A stretch of 24,000 bases of DNA from an uncultured Opitutaceae bacterium. GTDB lineage: Bacteria; Verrucomicrobiota; Verrucomicrobiia; Opitutales; Opitutaceae. Shown one piece after another: positions 6,873 through 22,024 of this stretch (within the stretch, counting starts at the first letter, position 1; each line of letters starts with the position of its first letter). The DNA lies in assembly GCA_964471615.1 (NCBI GenBank), contig CAYYGV010000007.1, positions 33,473 to 57,472 of the forward strand, given 5' to 3'. The translations under genes were made by a program, and so were the position numbers. The notes beneath the pieces were generated by a model that saw nothing but the letters and a program-made list of their open reading frames with translations, ran no database searches and had not been told where the DNA came from.

Positions 6873-6898
6873 GGGAATAAGCCATGGGTGGCGGAGTC
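6873..6898 (+). promoter_or_regulatory. Near-match to the recurrent ECF promoter motif (P5): GGGAAT-N16-AGTC
   Basis: The sequence is gggaat aagccatgggtggcgg agtc caacc. The -35 element and spacing are exact. The -10 element reads AGTC instead of CGTC, followed by CAACC (compare CAAAC at P1 and P2). It lies 150 nt upstream of P1 in the same intergenic region. Confidence 0.3.
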
Positions 6899-7019
6899 CA
6901 ACCAGCCGGATGCCATCATGATTACCACCGTTCTTGTTCTTGCCGCCCTGACTGTTCTGGTCGCTGTTGACGACAAGGATAGCTGACGGAGCCATTCCCG
7001 GGATAAATCTCGGAACGGG

Positions 7020-7045
7020 CGGAATAAAGTGCGAGGCTCCCCGTC
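7020..7045 (+). promoter_or_regulatory. ECF-type promoter motif P1 (cGGAAT-N16-CGTC), putative autoregulated promoter of ECF sigma copy 2
   Basis: The sequence is cggaat aaagtgcgaggctccc cgtc caaac gacg ATG. The sigma ATG (7055) begins 13 nt after the first base of CGTC. The same architecture recurs at seven other sites in this window. Confidence 0.6.
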
Positions 7046-7054
7046 CAAACGACG

Positions 7055-7606
7055 ATGGAAGCCGTCCATTTCCAAAGTCTGGTCGATCAGTGGTATGACC
7101 CGCTCTACCGCTTCGCGCTGAGCCTTTCCCGGAACGGAGACAGTGCGCTCGACCTCACACAGCAGACGTTCGCCCGGTGGGCGGAAAAGGGCAGCGGCTT
7201 GCGGGACGCCTCTAAGGCGAAGTCCTGGCTTTTTACCGTCCTCTACCGGGAGTTTCTCAATACACAGCGCCGGCAACGCCGCGAGGGGCCGCCAGACTCA
7301 GAGGACTTCTTTGAGTCCGTCCCGGCGGAGGAAACCAGCTCGTCGCGGTCCGTCGATGGGCACCAGGCGATGGCCGCATTGCAGGAGATCGATGAGGTGT
7401 TCCGCGCTCCGTTGATCCTCTTTTACCTCGAAAACCATTCCTACAGGGAGATCGCTGAGATTCTCGACGTTCCCGTCGGGACCGTGATGTCCCGCATCTC
7501 GCGTGGCAAGGAACAGCTGCGCCGCAAACTGCGTGATGGCACTGCCGGCAAACCCGGCAAAATCGTTCCAATGACTCCTCCCACGAAAGGAGCGCACCAT
7601 GGATAA
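7055..7606 (+). CDS. ECF (sigma-70 family, group 4) RNA polymerase sigma factor, copy 2
   Basis: 183 aa. Region 2 reads YDPLYRFALSLSRNGDSALDLTQQTFARW...KSWLFTVLYREFLN. Region 4 reads FRAPLILFYLENHSYREIAEILDVPVGTVMSRISRGKEQLRRKL. Confidence 0.9.
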   Translation: MEAVHFQSLVDQWYDPLYRFALSLSRNGDSALDLTQQTFARWAEKGSGLRDASKAKSWLFTVLYREFLNTQRRQRREGPPDSEDFFESVPAEETSSSRSVDGHQAMAALQEIDEVFRAPLILFYLENHSYREIAEILDVPVGTVMSRISRGKEQLRRKLRDGTAGKPGKIVPMTPPTKGAHHG

Positions 7607-8351
7607 CAAACACGCCAAAATTGTCCTGAGCGTCTATCGGCCCCACGGCCAGGATGCCAATGATCCCGATTTCGCCGAAGCTTTGAAGCAGGTCGAGCGC
7701 GACCCGTCGATGGCCACATGGTTCCGGGAGCAGCAGCAATTCGATTCCGACTTCGCCGCGGCCCTGAATTCGGTCGCAGGGCCTGCGGAGGCCAAGACTA
7801 TGATCAAGGCGACAATGGGGGCGTCAGCCGGGTCGCGCCGCCGGTGGTGGCCGCTCGCGCTCGTCGCCAGCCTGGCCCTGGTATTCGCGACCTCGTGGGT
7901 ATTGTTGCGAAACCGTCCCGCTGGACTGCCGCTGCCGGAAAACGCCACGCTCGCCCAGCTCGCGACGAACCTCTCTGAGCATCATGCCTCCATCGGATTC
8001 ATGTCCGGTGATCTAGGCCGCATTCGGCAATGGCTCCTTGAACGGCGCGGTCCGGCGCCGGATGACCTGCCGGCGAAGCTGGCGGGCATGAAGATACTGG
8101 GCTGCGAAACCTGGAAGACAACCCGCGGCAAAGTCTCGCTCATTTGCTTTGTCAACGACGGCATGCAGATGGCGCACCTCTACATCTTCGAAAACGCCGC
8201 CGACTTCCCCGGCTTGCCGCCGCGCGCCGAACCGCGGCTGGCCCGCGAGGGCAATTGGTCCTTGGCGCTCTGGCAGGACGACGGCCACGCCTACGTGCTG
8301 GGTTCCCCGACAAATAGCGGCATCTCCGTCGAATCGCTCGTCCGCTCGTAA
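7599..8351 (+). CDS. Putative anti-sigma factor (single-pass membrane protein with an extracytoplasmic domain)
   Basis: 250 aa. The start overlaps the end of the sigma gene by 8 nt and is preceded by AAGGAG. The N-terminal region is MDNKHAKIVLSVYRPHGQDANDPDFAEALKQVERDPSMATWFREQQQFD. One TM helix (WWPLALVASLALVFATSWVLL) is followed by a C-terminal domain of about 140 aa. Confidence 0.75.
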   Translation: MDNKHAKIVLSVYRPHGQDANDPDFAEALKQVERDPSMATWFREQQQFDSDFAAALNSVAGPAEAKTMIKATMGASAGSRRRWWPLALVASLALVFATSWVLLRNRPAGLPLPENATLAQLATNLSEHHASIGFMSGDLGRIRQWLLERRGPAPDDLPAKLAGMKILGCETWKTTRGKVSLICFVNDGMQMAHLYIFENAADFPGLPPRAEPRLAREGNWSLALWQDDGHAYVLGSPTNSGISVESLVRS

Positions 8352-8371
8352 TTCAAAATCTCATTCCGATC

Positions 8372-20359: not shown

Positions 20360-20385
20360 GGGAATTTATACAGCCGATGGGCGTC
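20360..20385 (+). promoter_or_regulatory. ECF-type promoter motif P3 (GGGAAT-N16-CGTC) upstream of the GT2 gene
   Basis: The sequence is gggaat ttatacagccgatggg cgtc acaac. The GT2 ATG (20408) lies 26 nt after the first base of CGTC. A weaker upstream copy, GGAAT (20334-20338)-N16-CGAA, sits back-to-back with the -35 element of P4 and creates the ATTCCC-GGCG-GGGAAT inverted repeat at 20323-20338. Confidence 0.55.
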
Positions 20386-20407
20386 ACAACAAGACCCCAC
20401 CGATTGC

Positions 20408-21160
20408 ATGGCATCCGTTAACGACCGTTCCCATCCTCCTGTGACCTGTGTGTCCGTCATTGTGCCGACGTGGAACGAGGAACGGGGCCTGGCAGAGTGC
20501 CTGCGGTCGGTCGGGGCTGATCGACCCGGCGTGGAGGTGATTGTTGTCGATAGCGGCAGCACGGATCGCACTGCGGAAATCGCGGCTGGCTTTGGTGTGC
20601 GCCTGATCGCCTCTCCACTCAGGCAGCGTGCCGCGCAGCTCGACTTGGGGGTGCAGTCGGCTCGCGGCGAGGTTCTGCTTTTTCTGCATGCCGATACGTT
20701 GCTGCCCCGTGGCTGGGATGAGGCGCTTCGGCGGATGCTCGATGCCGATCCCGACACCCTTGGTGGCGCGTTTCGGCGGCGGTTCGACCATCCCTCCCTG
20801 TGGCTGCGCTGCACCTGCGCGCTGGCCGATTGGCGCGGCCGGATCTGGGGCTGTTTTCTTGGCGACCAGGCCATGTTCATCCGCACGGCGACGTTCTGGT
20901 CGCTGGGCGGTTTCCGGCCCCTCGATCGGTGCGAGGACCTCGACCTGTCGCTGCGGATGGCCCGGGCGGGGCGCACGCGAATGGTTGCCTCGCCGGTGGT
21001 GTCCTCCGGCCGGCGATTCCTGGCGCGCGGTCCATTTCGTCAGACCTGGGTGGATTTCGCGACCGCCTGGCGGTTTATCCGCCACCAGCCCGCCGCGGTA
21101 GTTCCCGTGGCGTCTCCTCCGGTTTCGGCGCCGCGCCACGAGTCCGCGCCCGTGGCGTGA
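20408..21160 (+). CDS. Family-2 glycosyltransferase, TIGR04283-like (partner family of TIGR04282 in ArsS-type clusters)
   Basis: 250 aa. VSVIVPTWNEERGLAECLRSV, VEVIVVDSGSTDRTAEIA, LLFLHADTLLP and CEDLDLSLRM form a GT-A fold with a DxD-like motif. The family assignment is from memory of TIGRFAM naming. Confidence 0.75.
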   Translation: MASVNDRSHPPVTCVSVIVPTWNEERGLAECLRSVGADRPGVEVIVVDSGSTDRTAEIAAGFGVRLIASPLRQRAAQLDLGVQSARGEVLLFLHADTLLPRGWDEALRRMLDADPDTLGGAFRRRFDHPSLWLRCTCALADWRGRIWGCFLGDQAMFIRTATFWSLGGFRPLDRCEDLDLSLRMARAGRTRMVASPVVSSGRRFLARGPFRQTWVDFATAWRFIRHQPAAVVPVASPPVSAPRHESAPVA

Positions 21161-21183
21161 CCCGACCAAGACCAAGCTCCCTT

Positions 21184-21954
21184 ATGATTGGCTACCTCGT
21201 TGGTTCAGGATTCTACGATCAACCCGGCTTCGCACCCTCGGAGGTCGAGACCCGCCACGGTCGCGTTACGGTCTGGCGCGGTCAGGTCGGCGGACCGGTC
21301 GCGCTTATCTCCCGGCATGGCGCGGGACACGCGCGTCTTTCCCACCAGGTCAACCACCGGGCGAATCTGCTTGCGTTGAAACAGCTGGGGGCGAGCGCCG
21401 TGGTCTCGTGTTCCGTCTGCGGTGTCGTTCGGAACGATTGGCCCATCGGCGGACCATTGCTGGCGTCGGAAATGTATTTTCCGTCCAACCGGCTGCCCGG
21501 CGGCGAACTCTGCACCGTATTTGACCAGCCCGGCGAAACGGGCCGGGGCCATCTGATCGCCGGCTCCTTGATCGATGGCGCTCTGAGTGCCGCAATCGAG
21601 CAGGTCTGGCGCCGTCAGGGCTTGGCTCCGCAGATCGGCACCTACGGGCATGTGGACGGACCGCGTCTCAACACCAAATCGGAAATCAAGGCCCTGCGCG
21701 CCGCCGGCGTCGACTTCATCTCCCAAACCTGCGGTCCGGAGGCGGTCCTGGCCAACGAGCTGGAACTGCCCTACGCGCTCGCGGCTTTTGGCGTCGATCA
21801 TGCCAACGGCGTGGTGACGCCGCCGACTCCGTCGGAAGTGCTCAAAAACAATCTGACCGCCGCCACGCAGGCCTTTAGATCGTTGATCGAAGCGCTGGCC
21901 GAGCCGGCGGGAGGATTCCAGTTCGCCAATTTCGTCTACCGCTTCGGACCCTGA
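21184..21954 (+). CDS. MTAP-family (PNP/UDP_1 fold) nucleoside phosphorylase
   Basis: The internal ATG at 21184; 256 aa. MIGYLVGSGFY, ALISRHGAGHARLSHQVNHRANLLALKQLGASAVVSCSVCG, YGHVDGPRLNTKSEIKALRAAGVDFISQTCGPEAVLANELELPYA and DHANG match the methylthioadenosine phosphorylase family pattern. Confidence 0.8.
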   Translation: MIGYLVGSGFYDQPGFAPSEVETRHGRVTVWRGQVGGPVALISRHGAGHARLSHQVNHRANLLALKQLGASAVVSCSVCGVVRNDWPIGGPLLASEMYFPSNRLPGGELCTVFDQPGETGRGHLIAGSLIDGALSAAIEQVWRRQGLAPQIGTYGHVDGPRLNTKSEIKALRAAGVDFISQTCGPEAVLANELELPYALAAFGVDHANGVVTPPTPSEVLKNNLTAATQAFRSLIEALAEPAGGFQFANFVYRFGP

Positions 21955-21998
21955 AGCCAGTTCCGGGGTTCGTTATTTGCGCCATTCGCATGAGTAGC

Positions 21999-22024
21999 GG
22001 GAAGAAATCGCGGCTTCGCCCGTC
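21999..22024 (+). promoter_or_regulatory. Near-match to the recurrent ECF promoter motif (P2): GGGAAG-N16-CGTC
   Basis: The sequence is gggaag aaatcgcggcttcgcc cgtc caaac acca ATG. The -10-proximal 9-mer CGTCCAAAC is identical to P1, and the ATG at 22034 has the same 13-nt offset as the sigma ATG at P1. Confidence 0.5.

Follow-up and report, generated by a model that had tools for sequence, protein, structure and literature searches.

The stretch described here covers 24 kb of the genome of an uncultured Opitutaceae bacterium (24,000 nt of contig CAYYGV010000007.1, positions 33,473 to 57,472); it is referred to below as the window, and all window counts are based on it. It carries a putative operon for arsenic methylation and arsenosugar synthesis, which begins with the genes of an extracytoplasmic function (ECF) sigma factor (7055-7606) and of a membrane anti-sigma factor. 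Eight sites of the form GGAAT-N16-CGTC, exact or with one mismatch and named P1 to P8 (Table 1), are very probably promoters read by this sigma factor; six of them appear firm, one is accepted by orthology and one is doubtful. As an in silico result, the regulon reading is well supported overall. The enrichment of the motif, its strict N16 spacer, the position and orientation of the sites, their conservation at orthologs, the operon structure and the domains of the sigma and anti-sigma factors were all computed directly.

The exact motif occurs five times in the window (P1, P3, P4, P6 and P7), as the initial annotation had listed, against a chance expectation of 0.40 ± 0.62 in dinucleotide shuffles, and none of 100 shuffles reached five. 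When the spacer was varied from N11 to N21, N16 gave the five matches, N19 and N21 one each, and N11 to N15, N17, N18 and N20 none. The GGAAT pentamers, put at about 45 by eye, number 45 in the window, 13 of them intergenic. All eight sites lie between genes and are oriented toward the adjacent gene, in a region (6758-24000) with a coding fraction of 93%. This placement had been claimed from the beginning and holds, for P6 only when the start of the kinase is taken as ATG 15648 and not as GTG 15774, the first start of the open reading frame (ORF). The start at 15648 is supported by the calls for orthologous kinases, which have 59-nt leaders, and leaves a leader of 52 nt after P6. The sites had been located correctly, with each start set one base early so that the preceding base was included; this base is G at six of the eight sites, C at P1 and T at P8.

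Matches with one mismatch are not significant as a class (16 seen in the window vs. 8.2 expected) and were not counted as evidence, so P2, P5 and P8 need evidence beyond the pattern. A position weight matrix (PWM) was built from 20 sites outside the window and used to scan both window strands, with 50 shuffles as control. The eight top matches are exactly P1 to P8 (scores in Table 1); the next match scores 8.6. The best score of a shuffled window was 9.8 on average and 18.0 at most, a maximum which five sites exceed and below which P3 falls just short. P1, P2, P3, P4, P6 and P7 are convincing as predicted promoters. P5 is probably a further one, rescued by orthology, and P8 is, its position aside, an unsupported candidate.

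The two boxes are conserved among the sites while the spacers drift in sequence. The distance between CGTC and the start codon is 8-11 nt at the genes for the sigma factor (in all close orthologs), TlpA, the CBM48 protein and the Cys-rich peptide and at the g20 gene of the related locus L083, 15-19 nt at the small peptide and 21-22 nt at the GT2 gene, and leaders of 52-59 nt and 89 nt precede the kinase and VTT genes, respectively. Transcription from ECF promoters usually begins a few bases past the -10 box, and start codons located 8-11 nt past this box therefore suggest that several of the mRNAs are leaderless. No Shine-Dalgarno sequence is evident at P1, P4, P7 and P8 or at the orthologous sites in L002-L006, L081-L083, L088, L089, L091, L164 and L165. 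Scans of the region for sigma-70-type promoters and terminators gave no excess over background, and an Rfam scan of the region found no element. A leaderless start of the VTT gene at ATG 22034, 9 nt past P2, was rejected, being out of frame in the window (in L089 the equivalent ATG is in frame); the start was kept at 22114, which gives the 89-nt leader.

Two sets of related loci, cited here by their L numbers, were used for comparison. The first consists of 80 loci from species-representative genomes scanned with an alignment of the sigma factor, 70 of which could be evaluated for the gene after the anti-sigma gene. The second consists of seven closer loci (L081, L082, L083, L164, L165, L089 and L090) from exact-protein look-ups and a metagenome scan. 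Across Verrucomicrobiota, 77 of the 80 sigma orthologs have GGAAT no more than about 60 nt before the gene, nearly always followed by AA and with a -10 box at N16-17. The -10 box differs by clade: CGTC in the clade closest to the window (L002, L004, L005 and L006), GATC in L001 and L003, CATC in Oceaniferula-type loci and nCTC elsewhere. In all close orthologs the ATG of the sigma gene follows CGTC after 9-11 nt. Judged by sequence, this is the pattern classically associated with ECF operons that regulate themselves, and the autoregulation proposed in the initial annotation is supported by it. In 159 kb of sequence taken together from 13 close loci there are 24 exact matches at N16, whereas any other spacing between N10 and N22 gives 0-3. 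Five loci have gene calls; there, 14 of 15 exact matches fall between genes, and the remaining one lies within the PHO4 gene of L164.

Most of the other target genes have orthologs with sites of their own. The kinase site recurs in L083 (18514-18538, minus strand) and L164 (18502-18526, minus strand), where the kinases are 66-67% identical, and as a TCTC variant in L089. Sites before tlpA are found in L088 (N17-CGTC) and L091 (N16-CCTC), 9-11 nt before the ATG. The GT2 gene is preceded by the same T-rich GGGAAT(T/A)T..CGTC in L088, L091 and L089/L090 and by a CATC variant in L087; the distance to the ATG is 21-22 nt in L087, L088 and L091. The VTT sites of L089/L090 and L092 all have the unusual GGAAG -35 box. 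The g20 ortholog of L083 has its own GGAAT-N16-CGTC (20205-20229, minus strand), 10 nt before the ATG, and the small peptide follows perfect GGAAT-N16-CGTC sites at 15-19 nt in L081, L082, L164 and L165. Among the one-mismatch sites put forward initially, P2 and P5 are therefore backed by orthologous sites; P8 has no such support.

The GGAAG -35 box before the VTT and reductase genes is kept in three genomes (window 22000-22024, L089 5537-5561, L092 418-442), and the GT2 promoter keeps the T-rich sequence GGGAATTT. Both may be target-specific variants that tune promoter strength. In L083 and L164 (region around 16000-19800) a DUF3179 gene follows the kinase gene, and a Trx-DsbD pair is oriented divergently from the kinase, the ECF sites of the two standing back to back; those before Trx-DsbD are at 18560 (L083) and 18557 (L164) on the plus strand, and the window has no Trx-DsbD site. 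The divergent pair of the window is instead TlpA/AhpD versus GT2/MTAP. The modules of the regulon are shuffled between genomes, each keeping its promoter.

Table 1. Predicted promoter sites and genes of the putative regulon, in order of position. Units were called from Pfam and NCBIfam scans plus start-codon checks.
Feature	Coordinates	Strand	Remarks
P5, GGAAT-N16-AGTC	6874..6898	+	Variant -10; PWM 10.9, only at the level of shuffle maxima; orthologous sites perfect
22-aa hydrophobic peptide MITTVLVLAALTVLVAVDDKDS	6918..6986	+	ORF verified; downstream of P5
P1, putative autoregulatory promoter GGAATAAAGTGCGAGGCTCCCCGTC	7021..7045	+	Exact match; ATG 9 nt downstream; PWM 30.2 (top score); kept upstream of sigma orthologs
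ECF sigma factor, 183 aa	7055..7606	+	Pfam Sigma70_r2 (residues 9-76) and Sigma70_r4_2 (106-155)
Membrane anti-sigma factor (predicted), 250 aa	7599..8351	+	Overlaps sigma end by 8 nt; one transmembrane helix
ArsM-like As(III) S-adenosylmethionine (SAM) methyltransferase	8372..9526	+	NCBIfam
Pit/PHO4 phosphate-family transporter	9526..10629	+	Pfam PHO4, E 1e-69; start overlaps arsM stop
ArsS radical-SAM protein, TIGR04167	10626..11606	+	430.8 bits, cutoff 300; start overlaps pit stop
DUF547 protein	11627..12433	+	Pfam; conserved after ArsS
TIGR04282 arsenosugar-biosynthesis glycosyltransferase-like protein (DUF2064)	12430..13092	+	193.8 bits, cutoff 134
g17, 158 aa	13097..13573	+	Homologs at same operon position in L081, L082, L165
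Redoxin/AhpC-TSA thiol peroxidase-like protein, last operon gene	13570..14157	+	Pfam Redoxin, E 4e-21; start overlaps g17 stop
Sensor histidine kinase (P6 unit)	14191..15648	-	HisKA and HATPase_c
P6	15701..15725	-	Exact match; PWM 26.7; before kinase, in 135-nt gap
g20, 147 aa, third gene of P7 unit	15784..16227	-	L083 homolog, 52% identity
AhpD/CMD-family peroxidase-related protein (P7 unit)	16196..16774	-	Pfam CMD; TIGR00778, 29.3 bits, cutoff 27.8
CBM48/AMPK1_CBM domain protein, first gene of P7 unit	16861..17229	-	Pfam; ATG 8 nt past -10
P7	17238..17262	-	Exact match; PWM 24.6; 43-nt gap between zf_CopZ and CBM48
P8, GGAAT-N16-TGTC, weak candidate	18974..18998	+	PWM 10.0, about the mean of shuffle maxima; ATG 9 nt downstream
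51-aa FeoB-associated Cys-rich membrane protein (P8)	19008..19163	+	PF12669, 32.6 bits, cutoff 27
AhpD-like peroxidase-related enzyme, CxxC (P4 unit)	19169..19738	-	TIGR01926, 92.5 bits, cutoff 81.8
TlpA/ResA-like periplasmic thiol-disulfide oxidoreductase, WCPPC (P4 unit)	19783..20292	-	ATG 10 nt past -10
P4	20303..20327	-	Exact match; PWM 21.5; before tlpA and AhpD-like gene
P3	20361..20385	+	Exact match; PWM 17.0; before GT2 and MTAP-like genes; divergent from P4
TIGR04283 arsenosugar-biosynthesis glycosyltransferase, GT2 (P3 unit)	20408..21160	+	198 bits, cutoff 182
MTAP-like nucleoside phosphorylase (P3 unit)	21157..21954	+	Pfam PNP_UDP_1; TIGR01694, E 6e-33, below cutoff
P2, GGAAG-N16-CGTC	22000..22024	+	Variant -35; PWM 24.6; before VTT/TVP38
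VTT/TVP38 (DedA-superfamily) membrane protein (P2 unit)	22114..22821	+	Pfam VTT_dom, E 2e-31
FAD-dependent pyridine-nucleotide disulfide oxidoreductase (P2 unit)	22845..24000, past window end	+	NF004991, 617.7 bits, cutoff 620, truncated protein

Among the nine genes from the sigma factor to the redoxin, neighbours overlap or have no more than 20 nt between them. Of the arsenosugar biosynthesis set (ArsM, ArsS, TIGR04282 and TIGR04283), the last three score above their cutoffs; the ArsM-like protein matches the NCBIfam ArsM models at best with E 2e-103 and 3e-60, all below the curated cutoffs (346 vs. 500 and 204 vs. 263 for these two). The product of g17 has no Pfam or NCBIfam match, and the redoxin has a homolog of 73% identity in L081. 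The order sigma / anti-sigma / ArsM-Pit-ArsS-DUF547-TIGR04282, with genes overlapping or abutting, was seen in all seven closer loci. An ArsM gene directly follows the anti-sigma gene in 10 of the 70 evaluable species loci, six of the eight nearest among them, and in all seven closer loci; ArsM is the only family that recurs at this place, and it does so in both Opitutales and Akkermansiaceae. In L005, where about 1.3 kb lies between the pit and arsS genes, a separate GGAATAATCC...CCCGTC site directly precedes arsS. In L067 the VTT and reductase genes directly follow the sigma/anti-sigma pair. No ArsR/SmtB gene is located in or beside the operon, neither at 6758-24000 nor in eight orthologous loci with gene calls or maps. 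Control of the arsenic operon by the sigma factor, as proposed in the initial annotation, is supported by conserved synteny and by the promoter; the addition that this control operates rather than that of ArsR may not hold in full, an extra repressor being possible.

Four related loci encode a homolog of the 22-aa peptide downstream of P5, 22-23 aa long and with the pattern MI(A/T)xxVxxAALTLLVAxD(D/E).., so that with the window the peptide is present in five genomes, always between a P5-type site and the sigma promoter (L081 from 1573, L082 from 9881, L164 from 9866, L165 from 9881). Its role may be that of a small membrane protein working with the anti-sigma factor, or of a regulatory leader. 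A Cys/His-rich 28-aa ORF that starts inside P5 (GGAGG-N8-ATG) was rejected as a gene; its ATG is not conserved in L081, and the ORF conserved downstream is the hydrophobic one of 22 aa. Among the satellite genes, the TlpA-like protein matches the NCBIfam models of ResA, TlpA and DsbE, all below their cutoffs, and the FAD-dependent disulfide reductase is related to MerA, Lpd and GSR.

The sigma factor contains only the sigma-2 and sigma-4 domains and scores 69.3 bits with the NCBIfam sigma70-ECF model TIGR02937 (cutoff 42.9). Its nearest solved structures are SigH and SigE of Mycobacterium tuberculosis, SigH scoring best. The homologs number in the thousands, the best being verrucomicrobial (Opitutaceae, Akkermansiaceae, Oceaniferula). 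A homolog of the anti-sigma factor follows the sigma gene in 68 of 80 loci, and the product of 7599-8351 is most simply read as the cognate anti-sigma factor, co-transcribed with the sigma factor and predicted to bind it. Its N-terminus is weakly DUF3379-like (Pfam, 28.6 bits, below the cutoff of 33.2). Residues 110-250, which have no Pfam or NCBIfam match, are modelled by AlphaFold with pLDDT >90, and the periplasmic domain consists of approximately three helices followed by six strands. C169, C183, H193, W172, W145, W220 and W225 are invariant in 33 homologs, and the Cys pair is common to ArsM-linked and unlinked members. The protein has no HxxxCxxC motif, and its only two Cys residues are located in the periplasmic domain after the transmembrane helix; sensing by such a membrane anti-sigma factor would thus be periplasmic and not cytoplasmic. 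The anti-sigma factors of Akkermansiaceae and Oceaniferula (L007, L008, L020, L046, L055) are about 60 aa longer and carry an extra periplasmic CxxC (e.g., NDCYHCP).

The window contains a second ECF sigma gene (2021-2779), which together with the gene of a DUF5667 anti-sigma factor occupies 1128-2779 on the minus strand; its best NCBIfam match is the BldN family TIGR02952. The initial annotation had treated the sigma factor at 7055 as copy 2 of this one. The two are unrelated: in tblastn the sigma factor at 2021-2779 matched only one of the 80 loci, with 28% identity, and its nearest NCBIfam relative is BldN-type.

Several observations weigh against the regulon as read here or against its link to arsenic. 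In 60 of the 70 loci the sigma family is not next to ArsM, and the ancestral regulon may therefore not concern arsenic; its original role may have been in redox stress. In the loci of Akkermansiaceae no extra sites were found within 10 kb. The motif resembles promoters of many ECF groups, so another ECF sigma factor could read some of the sites. The sensor domain found no match in a profile search of the PDB, and a Foldseek search against the PDB gave only a weak RseB-like match (E 5e-3, TM 0.25). The window has a single ArsR-family gene (3379-3837), which adjoins an MtrA-like gene in another unit, 3.2 kb upstream of the sigma operon; because of it, ArsR-type input or extra repression is possible. 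P5 carries AGTC in the source genome. P8 scores at background level, and for its target, the 51-aa Cys-rich peptide, a regular-expression and phmmer search of 9,631 small ORFs in all fetched loci found no ortholog. Finally, an exact site in L164 (13052-13076, plus strand) and a TGTC variant in L083 (13059-13083, plus strand) fall within the coding part of PHO4, some 500 nt upstream of arsS. An internal pit promoter was not adopted for the window, where the aligned codons hold no such site, and the PHO4-internal site, treated as chance or coding-driven, is either that or a lineage-specific internal promoter.

The regulon may be real and serve a different purpose, with general periplasmic or envelope thiol-redox stress as its signal and arsM-arsS recruited as passengers in Opitutales. 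We consider this possible, though not probable. It agrees with the 60 of 70 orthologous sigma/anti-sigma pairs that lack ArsM, with the Cys pair shared by linked and unlinked anti-sigma factors, and with the response of SigH and SigE, the nearest solved sigma factors, to thiol or envelope stress. Moreover, more than half of the satellite genes are of thiol-redox type (TlpA, two AhpD-like proteins, redoxin, FAD disulfide reductase), and relatives add Trx-DsbD. Recruitment as mere passengers is at odds with the recurrence of ArsM alone directly after the anti-sigma gene, in Opitutales as well as Akkermansiaceae, and with the presence of the promoter, their own or a shared one, at ArsS and at both glycosyltransferase families of arsenosugar synthesis. 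The arsenic and thiol-redox readings overlap, since arsenite acts as a thiol poison.

It is improbable that the motif is a promoter read by a different ECF sigma factor encoded elsewhere in the genome, with the pair at 7055-8351 as one of its targets. GGAAT/C...CGTC-like promoters are generally known from many ECF groups, the inspection covered 24 kb of the genome, and the window itself encodes the second sigma factor at 2021-2779. Against this stand the presence of the motif directly upstream of this sigma family in 77 of 80 genomes, which is the usual signature of ECF autoregulation, and the change of the -10 variant (CGTC, GATC, CATC, nCTC) by clade along with the sigma factor; the sigma factor at 2021-2779 is unrelated and has no GGAAT-N16-CGTC site nearby. 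It is most improbable that the motif is no promoter at all and is either an operator bound by a regulatory protein or a product of chance or of the composition of the AT-richer intergenic DNA: intergenic composition differs from that of coding DNA, so whole-window shuffles may underestimate chance, and the one-mismatch class is barely enriched, but N16 is strict in the window and in 159 kb of relatives, the sites always point at a gene at a start-codon distance fixed per target (8-11 or 21-22 nt), the motif is asymmetric, unlike typical operators, the two boxes are conserved as the spacers drift, and the differing spacer sequences show that the sites are not copies of a repeat.

For the regulon read by the sigma factor at 7055-7606, the following mechanism is proposed; the reading of the motif by this factor, the transcription starts, the mode of release and the signal are what we infer. 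At rest, the sigma factor would be held at the membrane by the co-transcribed anti-sigma factor, which would offer a cytoplasmic sigma-binding N-terminus, a transmembrane helix and the periplasmic residues C169, C183 and H193. A periplasmic trigger would release the sigma factor, which would direct RNA polymerase to (G)GGAAT(A/T)(A/T)-N14-CGTC(y)(m)AAC. The best guess for the trigger is a thiol-reactive metalloid (arsenite or methylarsenite) or a disturbance of periplasmic thiol-redox state by such a metalloid, as suggested by the ArsM linkage, the thiol reductants in the regulon and the conserved periplasmic cysteines. Transcription would start about 8-10 nt past CGTC, which at the sigma, tlpA, CBM48 and Cys-rich peptide genes would be the start codon and would yield leaderless mRNAs.

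P1 would provide positive feedback and on the same transcript supply ArsM, Pit, ArsS, DUF547, TIGR04282, g17 and redoxin. The satellite promoters would add the TIGR04283 glycosyltransferase and the MTAP-like phosphorylase, the periplasmic thiol reductants TlpA and two AhpD-like proteins, the VTT protein with the FAD disulfide reductase, the histidine kinase and the 22-aa membrane peptide. ArsM and ArsS would make dimethylarsinoyl-adenosine, from which the MTAP-like phosphorylase could remove adenine; transfer of the arsenoribose could fall to the TIGR04282 and TIGR04283 proteins. Thiols would be held in the reduced state by TlpA, the AhpD-like proteins, redoxin and the FAD reductase, and Pit may move arsenate or phosphate. 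A bolder version, put forward as speculation and rather unlikely, is that the periplasmic C169/C183/H193 of the anti-sigma factor bind arsenite or methylarsenite directly; this would be the first ECF-type metalloid sensor, switching on the synthesis of organoarsenicals (arsenosugars or arsenolipids) together with a dedicated periplasmic thiol-reducing system.

Among known systems, SigR-RsrA of Streptomyces coelicolor and SigH-RshA of M. tuberculosis are thiol-stress sigma systems of the ECF12 type, with a GGAAT-type -35 box, autoregulation and a regulon rich in thioredoxin-type and disulfide-reductase genes; the -10 box of ECF12 is GTT at N18. The system of the window resembles them in its -35 box and in the redox genes controlled, and SigH is the best-scoring solved relative of its sigma factor. 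It differs in that the anti-sigma factor is a membrane protein without HxxxCxxC, the -10 box is CGTC and not GTT, and genes of organoarsenical biosynthesis belong to the regulon. Membership in ECF12 fails because there is no ZAS anti-sigma factor and CGTC stands at a strict N16 instead of GTT at N18. In RpoE-RseA-RseB of Escherichia coli (ECF02, envelope stress) the core of the -10 box is TC followed by A-rich bases. Here the single-pass membrane anti-sigma factor co-transcribed with an autoregulated sigma factor, the similar -10 box and the weak Foldseek match of the periplasmic domain to RseB are shared features; however, the anti-sigma factor has no sequence similarity to RseA or RseB, the structural match is weak (see above), and the targets are entirely different.

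Metal-responsive ECF systems are sigmaF-NrsF of Caulobacter (chromate, cadmium), CnrH-CnrYX of Cupriavidus (Ni, Co) and CorE of Myxococcus (Cu); NrsF is a multi-pass DUF1109 protein with a conserved periplasmic Cys pair, and CnrYX is a two-protein sensor. With these the window shares an ECF sigma factor in place of a one-component metalloregulator, and NrsF is also generally known to rely on periplasmic cysteines. CnrH is a distant match to the window sigma factor (E 6e-6), and the anti-sigma architectures of NrsF and CnrYX differ from that found here. To our knowledge, none of the three systems controls arsenic methylation or arsenosugar genes, and the control of arsenic resistance and methylation genes, as far as we know it to be described, is by ArsR-type repressors. 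ArsR-controlled ars operons, including arsR-arsM units and cyanobacterial arsM/arsS, encode the same enzymes (ArsM-like, ArsS, TIGR04282, TIGR04283), whereas the window operon begins with a sigma/anti-sigma pair and an ECF-type promoter and has no adjoining ArsR gene. The initial annotation had regarded the arrangement as not described before, and full-text literature searches indeed returned no paper that ties an ECF sigma factor to arsM, arsS or arsenosugar genes. The main text of the ECF reclassification paper (PMC7826278) does not refer to Verrucomicrobia, arsenic or GGAAT. In kind the regulon is an ordinary one of the ECF sigma/anti-sigma type, and its novelty lies in the targets and in the sensor domain.

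Through the conserved operon and its satellite promoters, a switch with extracytoplasmic sensing would control the making of organoarsenicals in a widespread environmental phylum. If the anti-sigma factor does sense the metalloid directly, arsenosugar synthesis in heterotrophic Verrucomicrobiota would be an inducible, envelope-linked detoxification and not a constitutive side pathway. The regulon also defines a candidate arsenosugar gene set by regulation and not by adjacency alone, with candidates for the incomplete arsenosugar pathway in DUF547, TIGR04282, TIGR04283, the MTAP-like phosphorylase, VTT with the FAD reductase, g17 and g20. The promoter model is precise: a strict N16 spacer separates its two boxes, and the start is predicted to be leaderless. 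Among cultured relatives, Oceaniferula spumae NT6N (L008) carries the sigma / anti-sigma / arsM operon, on NZ_AP026866.1 at around 1.938 Mb.

Three further features of the window lie among or beside the regulon units. A mer-like module is embedded among them, with MerR (18466-18858, plus strand), divergent MerT-HMA (17830-18417, minus strand) and zf_CopZ (17273-17821, minus strand); the gap between merR and merT has no ECF motif, and in L083 a homolog of zf_CopZ with 76% identity is located next to that of g20. The 145-aa ORF at 6320-6757 (plus strand) matches only the C-terminal two-thirds (positions 75-190 of 198) of the cation-efflux (CDF) profile. A longer cation-efflux gene at 5999-6757 with its in-frame stop read as selenocysteine was rejected, the upstream frame not being protein-like; that frame is also interrupted, and a CDF-like gene that is truncated or short is the likelier reading of 6320-6757. 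At 3379-4997 (plus strand) the gene of the ArsR/SmtB regulator runs into the start of the gene for an MtrA-like protein of 408 aa, which has a pterin-binding DUF4346 domain (NF002128, 487 bits, below the cutoff of 568). It is unusual for a corrinoid or pterin methyl-transfer protein to be encoded near an arsenic-methylation cluster and to be under ArsR-type control.

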